A DNA stretch of 64,000 bases, taken from the sequence record OZ413487.1; one strand, given 5' to 3'. This DNA comes from a phage. The translations under genes and the position numbers were made by a program. This document shows, piece by piece, positions 19,751 to 62,208 of the stretch. The notes beneath the pieces are model-generated. The model was given only the letters and a program-made list of their open reading frames with translations, was not told where the DNA came from and made no database searches. Within the stretch, counting starts at the first letter, position 1, and every line of letters starts with the position of its first letter.

Positions 19751-20122
19751 ATGGAATTTATTATTTTGGCTGTAGTAGTTGCCTTGTTCAACGCCTGGAT
19801 CGCTGGCAAGATAGGTAGATCCGCTTTTCTATGGTTTGTTATATCTATTTTCCTGGGAGTGGTTGCAACTATTGTATTGGTTATCCTTGCAATTGTTGAC
19901 AAGGGCGATAATAGAAAGGGTAAAGTGTTTTCCGACCTGTATGACGCACAAACGTTTGTCAACGCCTATTATAGTGATCTTCCAGTCTCCCTACGCTGCA
20001 GCCTGGCACAACAGGTTTTTGATGAGGCTAAAACCAGAGACCAAGCCCATGAGATATGTTTAACTGAAGCGGATCGCCTATTTGAGAGGAATAGAAAATA
20101 TGTGGACCAGCCGTTTAAATAA
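19751..20122 (+). CDS. hypothetical membrane protein
   Basis: ORF track 19616..20122; ATG 19751 after AAAGAGG; two hydrophobic helices. Confidence 0.45.
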   Translation: MEFIILAVVVALFNAWIAGKIGRSAFLWFVISIFLGVVATIVLVILAIVDKGDNRKGKVFSDLYDAQTFVNAYYSDLPVSLRCSLAQQVFDEAKTRDQAHEICLTEADRLFERNRKYVDQPFK

Positions 20123-23862: not shown

Positions 23863-24134
23863 CATGTTGTGTCAGTTAGGTCACATTATGTCAGACAAGT
23901 TTTTCTCCTCTTTGTCAAGTGCTGCATGAAAAATTTACAAGCTTGTATGGTAGCATTTTTGCGGCCCTGTTTACATTCAGTAATGTATGTATAATCCTTG
24001 TTGTGTGGGCGTTTAGACGTCTAGACGGTTGGAAGTCCACAGGTCAATATCTAATCTATCGGCTGCTAACTATATCCCACACAAATAGTAAGAAATATGA
24101 TTGTTATATGCGTAAACTGTAACTCATGTTATCA

Positions 24135-24505
24135 ATCCCTGTATGGATCGCCAGTGGTGCGCATAATAGGTATTATGTTAAATTGCCCGTAATGATAACA
24201 GTTCTCACAATGATAGGTATTCTCATTCATCCACACAAAATAGGTTGCAAATGTTGTGCCACTGTGTGAACGGCCTGGCCTATTAATTTCTCTCACTGCC
24301 TCGATATTTGAGAATTGTTATCCCTGTATGGATCGCCAGTGGTGCGCATAATAGGTATTATGTTAAATTGCCCGTAATGATAACAGTTCTCACAATGATA
24401 GGTATTCTCATTCATCCACACAAAATAGGTTGCAAATGTTGTGCCACTGTGTGAACGGCCTGGCCTATTAATTTCTCTCACTGCCTCGATATTTGAGAAT
24501 TGTTA
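24135..24505. repeat. tandem duplication, two ~185-bp units
   Basis: Unit beginning ATCCCTGTATGGATCGCCAGTGGTGCGCATAATAGG... occurs twice head-to-tail, essentially identical. Confidence 0.85.
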
Positions 24506-35075: not shown

Positions 35076-35276
35076 GATAGTTATACATCAGAACTGCACC
35101 ACCTAAGATGGCTACCAGTAACAATATCCCAGATAGCATCTCAATAAACATGGCTTGAAACACTGGAAGGTCTCCCTAAATTAACGCACCATTTTAAATA
35201 CATGCTCTTTTCCCATAAAGGTGCCTGGCTAAGATCTGCGTAGAACGCAATCTCTTTAAGAACAGTATAGATAGTT

Positions 35277-35504
35277 TTAGGTGCGGTCTCCATCCCTACT
35301 CTCCTTCCTGATATTCTTGTAGTAATCAACTAGGCACATTGTTACGATGAAGATAACAACAGGCCAAAAAGGTGCAGCAGTGATGATGGTGATAAAATCA
35401 TCAAACTTCACCCTTCGTCTGGACACGATGCATACACCTGTCAAGAATGCCGCTGTTATAACGGACATTACCAGGTAACCTATTAGCACAACATTTATAC
35501 TCAT
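35277..35504 (-). CDS. hypothetical membrane protein
   Basis: Two hydrophobic segments. Confidence 0.4.
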   Translation of the reverse strand: MSINVVLIGYLVMSVITAAFLTGVCIVSRRRVKFDDFITIITAAPFWPVVIFIVTMCLVDYYKNIRKESRDGDRT

Positions 35505-35534
35505 TGGTCCTCCCTTTGTAGGTTAAATTGTATA

Positions 35535-36068
35535 CTACAAATGGTCGCTGAGGGTGTCAAGAAAATTATCCCGTTCTTTCTCAGAGTTTTCATGTGTGTA
35601 GCTGAAAAACATATCGAGAATAACCTTATTGATATATTCCAGCTCCTCTGTGTTCAGATGCTTAGCAGGATCTACAATGACATCCCAAATATCATACAGA
35701 CCACACTCATGATACCCATAACGCCACTCAATTGTCAAGCTGAGCGGCAAATCTTTACCTTCACAAACAACCTTCCATCTACATATGTTGGTATCTGGTC
35801 GTACCTGTGCACGGTACACCTGCACAAAATCCAATTTGAATTTGAGGTACTCGTCATACAATTTAAGCACAAAGCTCTCGATTTGTGGAGACACTTTTGC
35901 AGCAAACTGTGCGTATTTGTACTTGCACTGGATGATCTTTCTACGTTTTGCAGTTAAATTTTTTGCCGCCAGTTGTTCTTCAGTGTATCTCCACCTACGA
36001 TCAACAAACGCAACAGGGTCTTTGTCCCCATAGAGGTCTTCCCAGTTAATCAGAAGCATACCTGTCAC
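35535..36068 (-). CDS. hypothetical protein
   Basis: ORF track. Confidence 0.45.
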   Translation of the reverse strand: MTGMLLINWEDLYGDKDPVAFVDRRWRYTEEQLAAKNLTAKRRKIIQCKYKYAQFAAKVSPQIESFVLKLYDEYLKFKLDFVQVYRAQVRPDTNICRWKVVCEGKDLPLSLTIEWRYGYHECGLYDIWDVIVDPAKHLNTEELEYINKVILDMFFSYTHENSEKERDNFLDTLSDHL

Positions 36069-56487: not shown

Positions 56488-56781
56488 TCAAGACTTTTTA
56501 GTCTTTCTTGGAGAGCTTTTTGTTGATCTTTTCCTTTTGTGGTAGATTCCAAGTGCAGCGTTTTCTTGGGCGCACGTTTTAACAGTTCTCAGACAAGAAC
56601 TTTCAGCTTTAGGCAGGTTTAACTCCCACCAACCAAGCCAGTAAAGTTCTGATTCAGACAACTGCTCAGATTCAGCCTTCCGATACAAGGCTTGCATACC
56701 TCTGATGATATCGTCCAGAGGTGTATCGAATACAAAAGCTGTCTTATCGAATTTCTCTTTTACAGGTTTCTTAGCCATCAA
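56488..56781 (-). CDS. hypothetical basic protein
   Basis: ORF track. Confidence 0.4.
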   Translation of the reverse strand: MMAKKPVKEKFDKTAFVFDTPLDDIIRGMQALYRKAESEQLSESELYWLGWWELNLPKAESSCLRTVKTCAQENAALGIYHKRKRSTKSSPRKTKKS

Positions 56782-57235
56782 GGTAACCCTCTATCCACGA
56801 AAAGTCAGTCTTCCACTCTGGAACTTTACTAAGCTCACGCCACTCTGCAAAGCAGTCTCGGTAATACTCCTCTGCCATACCTTTGGTGATCTTATTCACC
56901 TTAGCCAACTGATTAACTGCCTGAGCATACTTTCCACGGATATTTGCTAACCCAGGGTGCACCGATGTGTGACAATCCGGGCACAACGCTATCAGTCCGA
57001 CAAGCCGGATCACTCCCTCTTCGAAAGTGTAAAGTTCATGACACTCCACTGGGTGTTTGCTGCCTTTACCGCCGCACACCTCACAGGTGTAGTTGGCTTC
57101 TCTATAGCACTTCTTGCGGATCTTATCCCACTCACTCTTCTTTACAGCGTTTCGGAGGTTATTATACCAAGCTGTTTCTGGGATCAGTTGCACAATAAGC
57201 CTGCGTTCAGACTTCATTAAACGTCCGTCTTCCAC
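56771..57235 (-). CDS. hypothetical Cys/His-rich (zinc-binding) protein
   Basis: CEVCGG...H...CPDCH pattern. Confidence 0.4.
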   Translation of the reverse strand: MEDGRLMKSERRLIVQLIPETAWYNNLRNAVKKSEWDKIRKKCYREANYTCEVCGGKGSKHPVECHELYTFEEGVIRLVGLIALCPDCHTSVHPGLANIRGKYAQAVNQLAKVNKITKGMAEEYYRDCFAEWRELSKVPEWKTDFSWIEGYLDG

Positions 57236-57244
57236 GTATCCTCC

Positions 57245-57451
57245 TCATTCAAAGAAATGGGTACGAGGGCAGGAACCTGCCTCTCCTTGTTTCACAAGTT
57301 CGTAGAGCTCACCTTGGCTTGTCTCATAAAGGCAAATACGTTTACCATTGTCCCGATATACATCGACAAGATACGCTGTTTCACCTGCAAACACTACACC
57401 ACAGGCCAGACATGCCGCCATGAACAAAATTGCCAACAGAAAATCTTTCAT
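57245..57451 (-). CDS. putative secreted small lipoprotein
   Basis: Signal-like MKDFLLAILFMAACLAC; two Cys in short mature part. Confidence 0.4.
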   Translation of the reverse strand: MKDFLLAILFMAACLACGVVFAGETAYLVDVYRDNGKRICLYETSQGELYELVKQGEAGSCPRTHFFE

Positions 57452-57519
57452 GGTTAAACCCTCTCAAACATTTTATGAGGTGACAATACCACGTCCGTGT
57501 GGTTATGTCAATGATACTG

Positions 57520-58218
57520 TTACAAGCTTTCAGTAAGAGCCTTTGCGTAACACGCTTCAGCAGACTCTTTGGTGTCAAACCTGCCTAACGTTTTTCCTCT
57601 GAAAGTTACTTTCCATTTGCCCCTGTCTGCTTCAAATCTGACACCTCTAGATTTATCCCTCCCTAAAGGCTGTCCACGATATTCCCTGACAAACGTGCCA
57701 CTTTCAAAAGACTTTTGAGCAGCAATGGCCTCTTCTAAGGTATCGTATTCTCCTAAATCTTTCTTATAGTAATGACCTACCTTACCAAAAGCAGCATACC
57801 TTCCAGATCTAGCATGAAAATATACACCCAAATGTCCAGTATTGGATTTAGGTATCTTGCGTGCCAGGCATCCGTCATCTGCCGCCTTTTTTGCATTTTC
57901 TTCTGGTGTTAACAGTTGTAGGTTTTCTACCCTATCATCCGCAACACCATCGGAATAGAAAAGTGGCTTTATGTGATCAACTTCGTACCCTTCTGGGATT
58001 GGTCCATAGTGCATCTCCCACACCAATCTATGCCTGTAGTAATGCACGCCACAATAGACTATATCCCTGTACCCGTCCATGTTAGTACATCCAGCCTCCT
58101 TTCCCAGTAGTTGAGGTTTGTTTTTTGGCGGGGACTTCCAAAACAACCTTCCAGTTCCTGTATCGTATCTAAAGACACTCCACCAGTTAATCCCGTTACT
58201 CATCTGTAACAACTCCAC
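57520..58218 (-). CDS. HNH homing endonuclease with AP2 DNA-binding repeats
   Basis: HNH core HRLVWEMHYGPIPEGYEVDHI...NLQLLTPEEN; two AP2-like repeats (GRYAAFGKVGHY...EAIAAQKS; GKWKVTFRGKTLGRF...AEACYAKA). Confidence 0.75.
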   Translation of the reverse strand: MELLQMSNGINWWSVFRYDTGTGRLFWKSPPKNKPQLLGKEAGCTNMDGYRDIVYCGVHYYRHRLVWEMHYGPIPEGYEVDHIKPLFYSDGVADDRVENLQLLTPEENAKKAADDGCLARKIPKSNTGHLGVYFHARSGRYAAFGKVGHYYKKDLGEYDTLEEAIAAQKSFESGTFVREYRGQPLGRDKSRGVRFEADRGKWKVTFRGKTLGRFDTKESAEACYAKALTESL

Positions 58219-58684
58219 CTGCCTTCTTAAAGATATCCAGCATCTTGTCTATACTTTCTGCTCGCTGATTGTACAGCTTTCCAGCTCCTGGCGGTGGTGG
58301 GAAGCTTGCCCAGCGGCTGCGGCATTTATAAATGGCCTGATGAATACGCCCTTCGTCAATGTCAGCGAGAGCCTTGCACTCACGGATCAGTTGCAACGCA
58401 ATCTTGTCCTGACTGGCAGGGCCAAAATCTGGTAATCCTAACTGTTTCATGTAGTGTTTAGCAAACTTCTCCAAAACCTGGTAACGACCAGCAGCGGAGG
58501 AGGTAAGTTTAGCATTTAGCTTAACGTAAACACCTGGATGCTTGCTGTAATCGCTGAACAGCTTGCCGCCGACTATGACATCGTACCCCCGATCCTTGGT
58601 AGGTTGTCTACCATTATCTGTTCCTTCCGAATATGCGATCATATCCAAGAAAGCTTTTCGTTGAACATTTTTATCAAGTTTCAT
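58196..58684 (-). CDS. lysozyme, lambda R-type lytic transglycosylase
   Basis: NVQRKAFLDMIAYSEGTDNGRQPTKDRGYDVIVGG near-collinear with lambda R NNQRKAFLDMLAWSEGTDNGRQKTRNHGYDVIVGG. Confidence 0.85.
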   Translation of the reverse strand: MKLDKNVQRKAFLDMIAYSEGTDNGRQPTKDRGYDVIVGGKLFSDYSKHPGVYVKLNAKLTSSAAGRYQVLEKFAKHYMKQLGLPDFGPASQDKIALQLIRECKALADIDEGRIHQAIYKCRSRWASFPPPPGAGKLYNQRAESIDKMLDIFKKAGGVVTDE

Positions 58685-58808
58685 TTTTCATACTCTCCAG
58701 TTTGCTCATAACTAACCCGATCAACAACACTGCATAGTGTGGTTATGTAGGTGCCAATTGAAAAACCATCATTCAATTGGCTACCGTTACCTACTAAACC
58801 ATCCTACA

Positions 58809-60092
58809 TCATTCCAGAACCTCCCAAGTGTCTGGGTCAACATTTCGGACGCAGATACCGACAGGGAATTGGTAGTTGTTGTCTTCTGTCCTTGATTGAT
58901 ATTTGAAGGTGACAAACTTGCCGATCATTTCCTGCATCCTGTCATAGCTACGCTCCTCGTGCGTGCCTTTCATCTTCATTTTAACAATAACACCTTCCTT
59001 GTCAACACAGATAAGAACACCTTCATCATTCTTATCTTTCTCAACGTCAATAACTTTCACCTCTGCGTCGTTGAACTTTTTCCATTTCAATGCTTCAGAT
59101 GTTCGCTGACCGTACTCGTATTTACCGCAGAAATTACGCATGATAGTACCTTCATATCCTTCGGACATGAATATACCAACAGATTCTTCGCAATGATCAA
59201 CTGTGTACGCAAGCTCTGCGTCAACAACCTTGATATGGTCAAGCATCAGAGTGGTAACGGTATCCTCTGCATCCATAAGATCCTTGCAGCGTCCAGACTC
59301 TGTTTCTGGATCCCACCACACCTTGTCGCTAGGAATATCAAAAATGTGATACTCCAGATCGTAGCTACAGTACCCACCGTAACGCAAATCATCACGAACA
59401 GGCTCAACATCGACAGGAATATCTACCTTGTTGAAGTTTTTGTATGTTGATAAGCCTGCCTTAATTGCTGCATGACGGCGTTTTTTATCTGCCTCATAGT
59501 CTTTATCGATCTCGGCCTGAATTTCTTCCTGTGTGCGCCACCGTTTAGCAAGAGACACTATTTTCTGCAGAGGAAGACCATGAATATAGAGCTCTCCGTC
59601 GAGCTGTTTAATCCCGGTGGTTAGGTGGAAAGAGCGAAGTTGCTCCAGAAGCTTTCCTTGAATAGGGTAGGACTTATTACCACGGGAAATAAATTTAGGC
59701 TCACCATTTTGGAAAACAACAAGCAGACGAAGGCCATCTAACTTACGCAAGATCCAGCAAGGTAATTTAAGTGCCTTGCCACGCTTCAGGTAGTCATGCA
59801 CCAGCATGGGTAAAAGATCAACACCCTGCTCGCAATCTTCCATGTTTTCAACATACCCCAGACGGACTTGTTTTTCCCACTTGCTGATAGCCTCAAGCTC
59901 GGCCTGTTGCTCAGCTGTAGTCTCGTTGGCACGACCTACGTTCTTAGGTGTGCATACCGTCTCTTTGTACTGCAGTTTACCATCAAGCTTGCCAAACTCT
60001 ACGATAACCTTATCACCATCCGTGAATACTTTCCACTGTTGGTAGCTGCCATCTTTATTCAGTGCGTACAGTGTTGTTTTGATCTGATGCAT
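58809..60092 (-). CDS. ATP-dependent DNA ligase
   Basis: Motif I KLDGLR (KxDGxR); motif IV EGYEGTIMRN; motif V LKWKKF. Confidence 0.7.
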   Translation of the reverse strand: MHQIKTTLYALNKDGSYQQWKVFTDGDKVIVEFGKLDGKLQYKETVCTPKNVGRANETTAEQQAELEAISKWEKQVRLGYVENMEDCEQGVDLLPMLVHDYLKRGKALKLPCWILRKLDGLRLLVVFQNGEPKFISRGNKSYPIQGKLLEQLRSFHLTTGIKQLDGELYIHGLPLQKIVSLAKRWRTQEEIQAEIDKDYEADKKRRHAAIKAGLSTYKNFNKVDIPVDVEPVRDDLRYGGYCSYDLEYHIFDIPSDKVWWDPETESGRCKDLMDAEDTVTTLMLDHIKVVDAELAYTVDHCEESVGIFMSEGYEGTIMRNFCGKYEYGQRTSEALKWKKFNDAEVKVIDVEKDKNDEGVLICVDKEGVIVKMKMKGTHEERSYDRMQEMIGKFVTFKYQSRTEDNNYQFPVGICVRNVDPDTWEVLE

Positions 60093-60361
60093 TACTCGGC
60101 CTCTTCCTTAAAAATTTTAAACATCTCTTCTTTACTCATTACCAACCAGTCTCCCATAAAGTCAACTAGCCAATCTCCCTGGTACAAGACAAGGTTACCA
60201 AAAGGCTCGACAAGCTCACACATGCGACGAAGATCTCTGGTCCGAACAGGTGACGATGTAAACACACCTGTATCAATCCACCGTTGCAGATCAGATACTG
60301 ATGAAGAGCTTCCGTCAAACTGATGTGCTTCTACAGGTTTAGCAAGATTAAATAACGGCAT
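60092..60361 (-). CDS. hypothetical protein
   Basis: ORF track. Confidence 0.4.
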   Translation of the reverse strand: MPLFNLAKPVEAHQFDGSSSSVSDLQRWIDTGVFTSSPVRTRDLRRMCELVEPFGNLVLYQGDWLVDFMGDWLVMSKEEMFKIFKEEAE

Positions 60362-60686
60362 TGCAGTCCTCCTTCTGTAGTAGGTCTTTTATAGGATAAA
60401 CAAGTAAGTGTGGGTCGTAATAACGTATAGTCCTATTCTGCCACACTATGAACTTTATTACAACCAAATTTACAATATCTTTATCACCATGTAGCCCAAC
60501 ACACACATTTGTCCATATTTTGTGGTTGAAGACCTTGCTATCGATGTAGATTTTAGTGTCAAACTTATCCTCCATTCTACCAATAAGTTTAACCAACTCT
60601 TTCATCTGATCCCCAAACACAGCATCGTTTTCAAGATCTCTAGAGTGCTTGTACATAACTATCTGCCTCACTTGCATACTTTCCAC
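60348..60686 (-). CDS. hypothetical protein
   Basis: ORF track. Confidence 0.4.
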   Translation of the reverse strand: MESMQVRQIVMYKHSRDLENDAVFGDQMKELVKLIGRMEDKFDTKIYIDSKVFNHKIWTNVCVGLHGDKDIVNLVVIKFIVWQNRTIRYYDPHLLVYPIKDLLQKEDCNAVI

Positions 60687-61446: not shown

Positions 61447-62208
61447 TTAAAGTTCCATAAAGTTTTCTACGGTCTCAATGAATGTTTTATCAGAGAAGGC
61501 ATCAACCGCACCGTTAAACCAAACTGGGATGCCGCGATCCTCATACTGGTAAATATCACTACGTGAAATGCCATTCTCCTCTAGATGCTGTGAGTCGTAT
61601 TTATTAACGATCAGTAGTTTGGTTCCCTTATTGCAGGCAGGGAATAGCTCCCAGTTAAAATTGATAACTGTGTTGGAACACCCTACAAGGATAACCATAT
61701 CATTGCTTGTAAGAGAAGTCAACAGGTCATACATGTCTGTATACTTCGGAGCTACTTCTCCGAAGAACACCACATTAGGTTTAACCCAGGTATACTTTCC
61801 TGCATCTACCTCAGAGTATCCAATGTCCTTAATGACGTCACTTCCTTCATCGTCCTCATAGACTATTTCTGGCAAATACCCGTGAACATGTAAAATATCT
61901 TCATGTTTTACACCAGCACGCTCCAGCAAATCATCTACATTGGTGGTAAGGTTGATCACACGACCAGACCAGCGGGAATACCACTCAGCGATCCGAAGAT
62001 GTGCAAGGTTAGGCTCAACACCGCCTAGAGCTACACGACGTGCATTGTAAAAGTCATGCACCTTGTAGTAGTTCTTGGCAAAGGTGTGGATGTTGCACAC
62101 CTCATCGATGCTGAAATTCTCCCACATTGCAGTGCTACCAGATCGGAAAGTGGGAATACCAGATTCAGCGCTCAAACCAGCACCGGAGATAATAATCAGT
62201 CGTCGCAT
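61447..62208 (-). CDS. Sir2-family protein (sirtuin-like NAD+-dependent enzyme)
   Basis: GAGLSAESGIPTFR; catalytic HG in DILHVHGYL; FGE and VGCSNTV motifs; no Zn-ribbon cysteines. Confidence 0.75.
   Translation of the reverse strand: MRRLIIISGAGLSAESGIPTFRSGSTAMWENFSIDEVCNIHTFAKNYYKVHDFYNARRVALGGVEPNLAHLRIAEWYSRWSGRVINLTTNVDDLLERAGVKHEDILHVHGYLPEIVYEDDEGSDVIKDIGYSEVDAGKYTWVKPNVVFFGEVAPKYTDMYDLLTSLTSNDMVILVGCSNTVINFNWELFPACNKGTKLLIVNKYDSQHLEENGISRSDIYQYEDRGIPVWFNGAVDAFSDKTFIETVENFMEL

Follow-up and report, generated by a model that had tools for sequence, protein, structure and literature searches.

A lambda R-type endolysin gene of a Vequintavirus and the patchily distributed HNH endonuclease gene behind it

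The endolysin gene and its surroundings

The phage DNA analysed here (64,000 nucleotides of record OZ413487.1, referred to below as the window) comes from a Vequintavirus, an rV5-like coliphage, and its nucleotide identity to published genomes is 96-97%. Three minus-strand open reading frames, already delimited in a first-pass annotation, are the subject of this study, and they encode a lysozyme, an HNH protein and a product of 68 amino acids. The first-pass annotation placed the transglycosylase amid genes of DNA metabolism, and this is how the region is built: an ATP-dependent DNA ligase (58809..60092, minus strand; PF01068 and PF14743, and the annotations of relatives) is encoded upstream of the lysozyme, and nuclease genes follow downstream, for a second HNH protein, a 5'-exonuclease, a RuvC-like protein, EndoVII and a DnaQ-like exonuclease. 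The second HNH protein (56771..57235, minus strand; PHROG 5200, 2e-72) corresponds to rV5 gp91. Its gene belongs to the conserved backbone, as it was found in 14/14 aligned relatives and in the remote lineage L024, with no presence/absence polymorphism among the relatives examined. We consider it probable that the region holds three independent things, namely the endolysin, a mobile HNH homing cassette and a secreted mini-protein.

The lysozyme gene (58196..58684, minus strand) encodes a homolog of the rV5 gp89 lysin, 162 amino acids long. Zero matches to this protein were obtained in Pfam or NCBIfam, and a sequence search of the PDB was needed to establish its identity. There, lambda lysozyme (1am7) was matched by phmmer with E=3.8e-49, residues 4-160 of the query aligning with residues 3-154; together with the match to PHROG 90, 'endolysin' (6e-52), this bears out the initial description of the protein as a lambda R-type lysozyme. 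The catalytic glutamate is kept, E20 in YSEGTD aligning with the SEGTD motif of lambda (E19), and the same residue was noted in the paper on LysECP26. Judged by its full-length homology to lambda R, the protein is a member of the GH104-like lytic transglycosylase family. No signal peptide, SAR or hydrophobic segment was detected in it by a TMD scan. It would act as the endolysin of this Vequintavirus, of lambda R type and cytoplasmic, and, since it carries no export signal, would have to reach the cell wall via a holin encoded elsewhere.

This identity is not new. The lysozyme is already annotated as the endolysin in rV5-like Escherichia coli phages, and the records of relatives label the gp89-type protein endolysin or lysin. 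LysECP26, a close homolog of 156 amino acids reported to be 98% identical to the rV5 endolysin, was strongly muralytic when purified, lytic with EDTA and toxic in BL21; the activity on record is that of a turbidity-type lytic assay. As to expression, no sigma-70-type site was found in the ligase-lysozyme spacer by a promoter scan or in the rV5 promoter table, and the rV5 late-promoter motif TGGTAAAATA is absent upstream of the lysozyme gene.

The HNH gene and the linked end of the lysozyme gene

Behind the lysozyme gene lies a putative free-standing HNH homing endonuclease gene (57520..58203, minus strand; 227 amino acids from the ATG). The HNH_3 domain (PF13392) scored 50.2 bits against a cut-off of 24.8 (E=2e-13), and PHROG 99, HNH endonuclease, was matched with 4e-49. 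The AP2 domain (PF00847) stayed below threshold in the whole protein (22.3 bits against a cut-off of 33.3), and its two C-terminal AP2-like repeats, when scanned singly, gave weak matches with E=0.006 and 3e-4; no solved structure was matched in the PDB sequence search. Of the initial designation as an HNH-AP2 endonuclease, the first half is thus secured by an above-threshold domain, and the second consists of sub-threshold matches only. Many enterobacterial phages encode relatives of 29-43% identity that are labelled as homing endonucleases, in some cases at other Vequintavirus loci, and no relative above 60% identity was found outside the 11 Vequintavirus records discussed below. The nuclease activity of this protein and its target site are inferred here from sequence.

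The longest reading frame of the gene (57520-58218) starts with GTG at 58218, and the overlap of 23 nt with the lysozyme gene described at first holds only for this start. An ATG at 58203 is preceded, 9 nt upstream, by the Shine-Dalgarno sequence GGTGGAG, and the equivalent codon is the start used in the records examined of RudolfGeigy, rV5_ev168, isim, nimi, rV5_ev147, YN3 and FV3. ATG 58203 is the likely start, and the two genes do overlap, by 8 nt at the lysozyme stop (ATGAGTAA) rather than by 23 nt. Such an arrangement suggests that translation of the HNH gene may be coupled to that of the lysozyme.

What our comparison adds to earlier knowledge is that the HNH gene is patchy and always comes with a swapped-in stretch of the last 45 lysozyme codons. 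The gene was found behind the lysozyme in 11 of 124 related records, and the diverged lysozyme 3' end, followed as a stretch of 140 nt, is present in exactly the same 11. The replaced tract, delimited by fixed differences and by its linkage to the HNH gene, comprises 136 nt (58196..58331, minus strand) and codes for WASFPPPPGAGKLYNQ... instead of WASLPGAGYGQ.... When eight genomes with the HNH gene were aligned with six lacking it, the divergence between the two groups was 34% in the tract and 1-6% elsewhere; fixed differences were confined to 58196-58331 plus the insert, with zero in the rest of about 6.7 kb. The HNH-linked allele carries insertions of 9 nt and 6 nt (PPP and KL) inside the conserved WASLPGAGYGQ motif, which the HNH-less allele has in common with lambda R. 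The first approximately 115 residues of the window lysozyme are essentially identical to those of the rV5-type lysin, and its C-terminal part of about 45 residues, with one extra terminal residue, is of another allele type. On the other side the insert is bounded as sharply: it sits exactly between the lysozyme stop and the promoter P090 of the 68-aa gene, ending about 3-9 nt upstream of the -35 hexamer, the exact point being ambiguous.

The polymorphism exists within one species, Vequintavirus murica, in which isim and nimi have the HNH gene and EdH4 does not. The flanks of isim differ by 0.1% from those of EdH4 and EmilHeitz, both HNH-less, and for the window the closest genome on both sides is the HNH-less AlexBoehm. 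Descent of the HNH-bearing phages as one clade was considered and rejected, as their flanks interleave with those of HNH-less genomes. The presence/absence pattern and the linked replacement tract support the original proposal that the HNH gene was inserted next to the lysozyme. A donor of the tract was not found; the best candidates are V18/HMD-6 and the metagenomic contigs L008-L010, at 63-83% nucleotide identity, and the tract indels are common to V18/HMD-6-type and L008-type lysozymes. The swapped end resembles this second natural lysozyme type, that of V18/HMD-6 and a metagenomic sister lineage, and for this reason the hybrid product would be a functional mosaic enzyme.

Judging from these alignments, the pattern is the one that a free-standing homing endonuclease leaves by one-sided co-conversion, for which there are precedents (PMC2988022, PMC2790892, PMC10448857), and it predicts a putative HNH target in the lysozyme 3' end. 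One plausible mechanism would treat the HNH gene and the last approximately 136 nt of the lysozyme gene as one mobile cassette. During mixed infection, the enzyme would cut the HNH-less allele in or beside the lysozyme 3' end, the recognition region being most likely the conserved stretch coding for WASLPGAGYGQ, and repair from the HNH-bearing genome would bring in the nuclease gene together with the diverged stretch of the lysozyme gene next to it. A carrier would escape cutting, since its own version of this stretch differs by 34% and bears the 9-nt and 6-nt insertions.

It is also conceivable that the HNH gene is old and now passive or domesticated, its distribution and the linked lysozyme end having arisen by ordinary recombination and occasional loss in co-infecting Vequintaviruses. 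The genomes are visibly mosaic across the 6.7 kb examined, and the four diverged HNH haplotypes differ by dS of about 0.09-0.12, similar to the backbone divergence, from which it follows that the insertion is old. However, dN/dS between these haplotypes is 0.13-0.22, indicating purifying selection on the reading frame, which is intact in 8/8 copies examined. If the gene were passive, it would also have to be explained why its linkage to the tract is perfect, why the tract is one-sided, has sharp limits and stops exactly at the insertion, and why the indels fall in the best-conserved motif of the lysozyme gene; together with the purifying selection, these features fit what has been described for active free-standing endonucleases (PMC2988022, PMC10448857). 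We regard a passive gene as unlikely and prefer homing with co-conversion as the origin of the linked tract. For the patchy distribution, ordinary recombination or loss could be just as important as active homing.

Scattered lysis genes and a predicted secreted mini-protein

According to the first-pass annotation, the lysozyme has no adjacent holin, lies far from any lysis cassette and has the 68-aa product as the only membrane-targeted one nearby. All three observations were confirmed. In the TMD scan, the 68-aa reading frame with its signal peptide was the only such one flanking the lysozyme, and no other reading frame for a membrane protein was found between 52 and 64 kb. Two holin candidates lie farther off. 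One, the homolog of rV5 gp129 (35277..35504, minus strand), is a protein of 75 amino acids with two TMDs and a basic C-terminus, encoded 23 kb from the lysozyme; it maps to rV5 94001-94371, which covers gp129, put forward as a candidate holin by the authors of the paper on rV5. The other (19751..20119, plus strand), a two-TMD protein of 123 amino acids encoded 38 kb from the lysozyme, is 100% identical in tblastn to RudolfGeigy bas52_0114, annotated 'putative holin'. Both belong to PHROG families without assigned function. The i- and o-spanin adjoin TerL at 1-683 in RudolfGeigy, a 96%-identical genome, and the spanin locus falls outside the window; the literature likewise places the spanins of the genus beside the terminase gene. 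In the window phage, neither holin nor spanins adjoin the endolysin gene as they do in a canonical holin-endolysin-spanin cassette, and no such cassette with another endolysin is present in the annotation of the 96%-identical genome. Earlier papers on rV5 (2013), LL12 and CB7 had already placed the lysin apart from the other lysis genes; the scattering of these genes in the genus is not new. The rV5 gene table lists gp133 as 'structural protein (MS evidence)' and gp89 only as 'lysin (lysozyme)'.

A separate problem is whether the lambda R-type lysozyme is the main lysis enzyme, or an exchangeable accessory to a SleB-like hydrolase that is exported by Sec and whose gene lies upstream of rIIA. 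SleB-like hydrolases (Hydrolase_2) with a signal peptide, non-structural, are conserved in all Vequintavirinae genera, and the third hydrolase varies by genus, being a T5-like peptidase in CB7 and lysozyme-like in others. RudolfGeigy bas52_0065 is of this kind (Hydrolase_2, E=2e-19, with an N-terminal signal-like segment), and a remote relative keeps the ligase-gp90-gp91 backbone without any lysozyme. Against a merely accessory role, the lysozyme gene is intact in 21/21 loci examined and matched in every related record found, its homolog LysECP26 is strongly muralytic and toxic on expression, and the annotated records as well as the rV5, LL12 and LysECP26 papers all name the lysozyme as the endolysin. 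It is improbable, in our estimation, that the SleB-like protein takes the main part, and we keep to the lysozyme as the endolysin. A hidden cassette of a holin and the SleB-like hydrolase upstream of rIIA in RudolfGeigy was also looked for and rejected: the neighbouring 126-aa protein is soluble, and no overlapping two-TMD reading frame is present.

The 68-aa precursor (57245..57451, minus strand), homologous to rV5 gp90, has nothing in Pfam or NCBIfam and belongs to PHROG 4641, a family without assigned function. The promoter scan placed a sigma-70-type promoter in front of its gene (57483..57511, minus strand; TTGACA-17-TATTGT with TG), identical in sequence to P090 of rV5 (Table S4). Alignments of homologs and an AlphaFold2 model (mean pLDDT 79, four strands) describe a protein with a single hydrophobic segment, a probable signal-peptide cleavage site at VFA↓GE and a beta-rich mature domain of about 46 amino acids, the C-terminal domain being acidic. 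A Foldseek search of the PDB with the model gave small generic beta-barrels with a best E=0.02, which was uninformative. No paralog of the gene was found in the window or in 117 of the 137 kb of RudolfGeigy.

This product had been suggested to be a lipoprotein, possibly spanin-like, and neither suggestion held. The cysteines C14 and C17 are not conserved, being replaced with M, V, L or S in homologs at 63-73% identity; the remote homologs have no cysteine in the signal region, the same is true of P0006-P0010, and in P0005 C14 follows Leu. Of the PROSITE rules for a lipobox, C14 fails the one on position, and C17 is without an allowed residue at -3. What is conserved instead is a site of signal peptidase I type, with small residues at -3/-1 at the same alignment position in the homologs (VFA↓G, SFA↓G, TFA↓G, AWS↓G, AWA↓G, AQA↓S, AEA↓A, ARA↓T), and two invariant cysteines in the mature part. 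As predicted from these alignments, the product is a Sec-exported periplasmic mini-protein processed by signal peptidase I, and the mature protein is probably disulfide-bonded.

The gene order lysozyme-promoter-67/68-aa gene is kept in a sister lineage with unrelated intergenic DNA. The remote homologs occur in the same ligase-to-gp91 backbone with no lysozyme; the pairing was not accepted as evidence of functional coupling, since it is lost in this remoter lineage that keeps the backbone. Most likely the two genes are neighbours simply because this order was inherited. A membrane-anchored lysis protein tied to the lysozyme (a holin or antiholin with one TMD, or a lipoprotein resembling o-spanins or Llp/Cor) would be in line with the one hydrophobic N-terminal segment, with the near-match of C14 to a lipobox in the clade of the window, with the gene order shared with the sister lineage and with the label 'putative membrane protein, 1 TMD' in several records, but it is very improbable given the variable C14 and C17, the hydrophobic core of about 12 residues followed by an AxA/AxS site in homologs, the spanin pair already assigned next to the terminase gene, the remote homologs away from the lysozyme and a nonsense codon in the 68-aa gene of one isolated phage. 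For the periplasmic mini-protein, our best guess is an early protection or superinfection-exclusion factor.

Implications and comparison with known systems

A broader reading of the locus can be offered tentatively, at somewhat less than even confidence. The endolysin gene of Vequintaviruses may be a hot spot for selfish nucleases, with one HNH family behind it and, in other lineages, a second, 30%-identical one in front, each associated with a different lysozyme allele. These nucleases would recognise the most conserved endolysin motif, and their spread would shuffle C-termini or whole genes between two lineages; the 68-aa protein would separately be a possible new superinfection-exclusion or lysis-timing factor.

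The practical value of these observations is modest, and they leave the understanding of lysis or homing unchanged; the HNH cassette is a neat example of a common type of element. They do provide a concrete target-site prediction for an HNH/AP2-like nuclease, with a donor (RudolfGeigy) and a recipient (AlexBoehm) from the BASEL collection that can both be grown in E. coli K-12. They also show that endolysins that are natural mosaics, with changes in the WASLPGAGYGQ motif, are viable, which is relevant to the engineering of rV5-type lysins such as LysECP26. The label of gp90-type proteins is corrected from 'membrane protein / lipoprotein' to a predicted family of secreted periplasmic mini-proteins, and it becomes apparent that, for a widely used therapeutic phage genus, two different holin candidates stand in databases.

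Among known systems, T4 has its lysis genes e, t, rI and rz/rz1 scattered, and in Vequintavirus, too, the endolysin, the holin candidates and the spanins are found at separate loci. As in T4, both rIIA and rIIB are present and a small secreted periplasmic protein is encoded (Sp and RI in T4), the 68-aa protein showing no sequence similarity to Sp or RI as judged from family searches rather than direct comparison. With lambda R (PDB 1am7, 3d3d) the window lysozyme shares 58% identity over its full length, the same catalytic glutamate in SEGT, a single globular domain and the lack of an export signal. Unlike in lambda, its gene stands outside any S-R-Rz cassette, and unlike both lambda R and rV5 gp89/LysECP26, it has the swapped C-terminal part of about 45 residues with the PPP and KL insertions.

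The closest parallels to the HNH gene are the Seg proteins of T4-like phages, MobE and the boundary nucleases of ICP1 (PMC2988022, PMC2790892, PMC10448857), which are likewise encoded by polymorphic intergenic genes among close relatives. The likeness extends to a one-sided diverged tract in an essential or conserved neighbour and to co-inheritance of flanking markers. In contrast to those systems, the presumed target of the putative homing enzyme is here an endolysin gene and not one of DNA or nucleotide metabolism. In its presumed DNA-binding part, which is AP2-like, the window HNH protein also differs from the Seg and Mob modules. HNH-AP2 endonucleases are the class behind the proposed homing-endonuclease origin of the AP2 domains of plants. 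In the members found in phages and cyanobacteria, as apparently in the window protein, the HNH_3 domain is N-terminal and AP2-like repeats come after it, those of the window protein scoring below the Pfam threshold.

Identity of the lysozyme and location of the lysis genes

The arrangement noticed in the first-pass annotation, a lysozyme gene far from any lysis cassette with an HNH gene overlapping it, is real and was rightly read in outline, and the arrangement itself is known and annotated. What is new here is comparative evidence for the HNH gene and the lysozyme 3' end as one mobile unit, a concrete predicted target site for the HNH enzyme and a re-assignment of the 68-aa product encoded nearby.

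A 3.7-kb query around the locus matched 124 phage records at 90-99% nucleotide identity, nearly all of them Vequintavirus (rV5-like E. coli myophages), with rV5_ev168, isim, nimi and RudolfGeigy at the top (96-97%). Nineteen of the 124 carry the name 'Campylobacter phage'; these GenBank entries (MG0656xx, about 19; stated host, Campylobacter jejuni) share 91-99% identity with Vequintaviruses of E. coli at window positions 56500-60200 and 35200-35560, and their host label looks doubtful. Base-composition skew and ORF layout place the locus in a long minus-strand block, on which all three ORFs previously proposed were found. An ATP-dependent DNA ligase gene lies upstream of the lysozyme gene, and genes for a second HNH protein, a 5'-exonuclease, a RuvC-like protein, EndoVII and a DnaQ-like exonuclease lie downstream of the lysozyme/HNH pair. 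The second HNH protein (56771-57235; rV5 gp91; PHROG 5200), whose sole NCBIfam match is a weak one to the IscB HNH region, is kept even in a remote lineage (L024, 5033-5533) and shows the pattern of a fixed part of the backbone rather than of a mobile gene. In phage HdK5 an additional gene, annotated 'putative modification methylase' (L005:772-1626), separates the gp91-type HNH gene from the gp92 homolog, which makes a further local polymorphism by insertion within a few hundred bp of that of the HNH gene. Elsewhere in the window, adjacent plus-strand ORFs of 47 and 48 aa (24126-24269 and 24308-24454) both encode the 43-residue IPVWIASGAHNRYYVKLPVMITVLTMIGILIHPHKIGCKCCATV, with one hydrophobic segment; the pair is a local tandem duplication, and the surrounding region aligns poorly with RudolfGeigy.

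The 162-aa ORF (58196-58684, minus strand) is indeed a lambda R-type lysozyme, as it matches 1am7 over its whole length (E=3.8e-49) as well as PHROG 90 'endolysin', and keeps the catalytic glutamate of SEGT; no model in Pfam or NCBIfam matched it. LysECP26, a 156-aa lysin of the same type, lyses Gram-negative cells in purified form after outer-membrane permeabilisation, and is toxic in BL21(DE3).

Separation of this endolysin from any lysis cassette was correctly noted, but it is already published, being found in the rV5 and CB7 papers and in the BASEL annotation. In the rV5 paper the ligase is gp88, the lysin gp89 (156 aa), the 68-aa product gp90 and the HNH protein gp91, and a promoter, P090, is predicted before gene 90; the CB7 paper describes likewise scattered lysis genes throughout the subfamily, together with a conserved SleB-like hydrolase bearing a signal peptide. 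The BASEL annotation of RudolfGeigy places spanins at 1-683, the endolysin at 126.8 kb and, at 86.5 kb, a 'putative holin' (bas52_0114). This holin differs from the candidate of the rV5 paper (gp129), and the window contains counterparts of both, one at 35277-35504 (minus strand), mapping onto rV5 gp129, and one at 19751-20119 (plus strand), identical to bas52_0114.

An alternative would be a canonical cassette built around another endolysin, with the lysozyme being virion-associated. Beyond the window, at 58804-59304 (L003:8804-9304), RudolfGeigy encodes a SleB-like wall hydrolase (Hydrolase_2, E=2e-19) that has a signal-like segment at its N-terminus; the gene lies directly upstream of rIIA and overlaps its start. 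It is a second non-structural wall hydrolase beside the lysozyme, with a possible part in lysis. The protein adjoining it is soluble and no two-TMD ORF overlaps the gene, while the rV5 gene table marks mass-spectrometry evidence for gp133 and not for gp89; these two observations argue against such an alternative.

The 68-aa protein and probable insertion of the lysozyme gene

The product of the 68-aa gene (57245-57451, minus strand) had been taken for a lipoprotein, possibly spanin-like. This assignment, which rests on C14 and C17, is not supported, as homologs sharing 63-74% identity have M, V, L or S at these two positions. In one homolog (P0005) C14 is preceded by leucine, and remote homologs (26-41% identity) have an N-terminal region without any cysteine. 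Conserved across the family are a basic second residue, a hydrophobic core some 12 residues long, a site of small-x-small type (VFA|G, AWS|G, AQA|S, AEA|A and others) and two invariant cysteines in the mature domain. In an AlphaFold2 model a helix at the N-terminus precedes a beta domain of four strands (pLDDT 84-93), and a Foldseek search with the model returned no informative match. Judging from these sequence features, we read the product as a Sec-exported, signal-peptidase-I-processed and probably disulfide-bonded periplasmic mini-protein; an early role in periplasmic protection or exclusion is our best guess, held with low confidence. In bov22_2 (L007:2708-2914) codon 48 of the gene is a nonsense codon, indicating either a sequencing error or that the gene is dispensable under culture conditions. 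It is missing from the BASEL annotations of AlexBoehm and EmilHeitz, and the ORF is intact in AlexBoehm.

The gene has its own sigma-70-type promoter (P090, 57483-57511, minus strand). The order of lysozyme, promoter and a 67-aa gene recurs in a sister lineage, with unrelated intergenic DNA, and a remoter lineage keeps the ligase-to-gp90-to-gp91 backbone and lacks the lysozyme. Adjacency of the lysozyme and 68-aa genes is thus best explained by insertion of the former into a conserved backbone, rather than by functional coupling. An exact 12-nt direct repeat, ACATAACCACAC, at 58737-58748 and 57497-57508 (minus strand; two matches against 0.29 expected), flanks the lysozyme gene, or the lysozyme and HNH pair. 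Its downstream copy covers the junction of the P090 -35 hexamer with the spacer; the upstream one looks like a decayed duplicate of P090, and the repeat may be a scar of the insertion.

The HNH gene and the lysozyme 3' end

The putative homing endonuclease gene (57520-58203, minus strand), described earlier as HNH-AP2, encodes an HNH_3 domain above the Pfam threshold, while its two C-terminal AP2-like repeats fall below it. It does overlap the lysozyme gene, by 8 nt (ATGAGTAA) from the ATG at 58203, which has a GGTGGAG Shine-Dalgarno sequence 9 nt upstream and is used in all seven HNH-bearing records examined; the 23 nt originally proposed would apply only if the ORF began at GTG 58218.

That the gene is an insertion, as suspected, is borne out by its patchy occurrence: just 11 of the 124 records, from 10 phages (FV3 was deposited twice), contain it, and the remainder align in two pieces that skip it. 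In alignments with HNH-less phages, the insert falls precisely in the gap that separates the lysozyme stop codon from the P090 -35 hexamer. The HNH gene alone, used as a query, retrieved the same 11 records, and so, exactly, did the last 140 nt of the lysozyme gene. In an alignment of 14 genomes over 6.7 kb (eight with the HNH gene, six without), divergence between the classes outside 58196-58331 equals that within them (1-6%), with no fixed differences; within this tract, which makes up the final ~136 nt of the lysozyme gene, it reaches 34%, and here lie all fixed substitutions together with two indels (6 and 9 nt). On the flanks the two classes interleave: the nearest relative of the window on both sides is the HNH-less AlexBoehm, HNH-bearing isim differs by 0.1% from EdH4 and EmilHeitz, which lack the gene, and the species Vequintavirus murica includes phages of either state. 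Short mosaic patches inside and beyond the ligase gene (59571-59670, 60371-60670 and 61469-61700), at which HNH-bearing genomes diverge from one another by 8-19% and most sampled HNH-less ones by near 0-1.5%, are unrelated to the HNH cassette. None of the eight copies of the HNH ORF is disrupted, and dN/dS among its four haplotypes is 0.13-0.22, so that it encodes a protein under selection; as the haplotypes are ~0.1 dS apart, the insertion is not recent.

Lysins of HNH-less phages end, like lambda R, in ...WASLPGAGYGQHEQKIEKL..., and the HNH-linked allele has ...WASFPPPPGAGKLYNQRAESIDKM... at the same place. Its PPP and KL insertions are shared with a second natural lysozyme type (72% identical overall) of V18, JEP1, HMD-6 and others, and with the uncultivated sister-lineage contigs L008 and L010, a third contig of that lineage (L011) having the lambda-like version. 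The window enzyme is thus a mosaic of an rV5-type body and a V18-type C-terminus. Sampled V18/L008-type genes are only 63-83% identical to the 58196-58331 tract at the nucleotide level, so its donor is unsampled.

Another HNH_3 gene (238 or 226 aa; 30% identical to that of the window) lies directly upstream of the lysozyme gene in HMD-6 (L006:1464-2180) and a metagenomic contig (L010:2742-3422). It was found in HMD-6, VB-EcoM-WM, YP-6, EduardKellenberger and one sister-lineage contig, always beside a V18-type lysozyme; V18 and JEP1, which have this lysozyme type, match the upstream HNH region partially (V18 over its last ~100 nt only). With a second nuclease family at its other end, the lysozyme gene looks like a recurrent target of selfish nucleases.

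Three features thus coincide: the intergenic nuclease gene is polymorphic, its conserved neighbour contains a diverged tract that is one-sided and sharply bounded, and indels fall in the most conserved motif of that neighbour. The comparative evidence indicates that the HNH gene and the end of the lysozyme gene form one mobile unit. From the three-feature pattern we infer that the HNH enzyme would cut the HNH-less allele in or beside the 3' end of the lysozyme gene, the carrier being shielded from cutting by its diverged tract. Published accounts of co-conversion by free-standing homing endonucleases, in T4-like phages and in ICP1, describe the same pattern.
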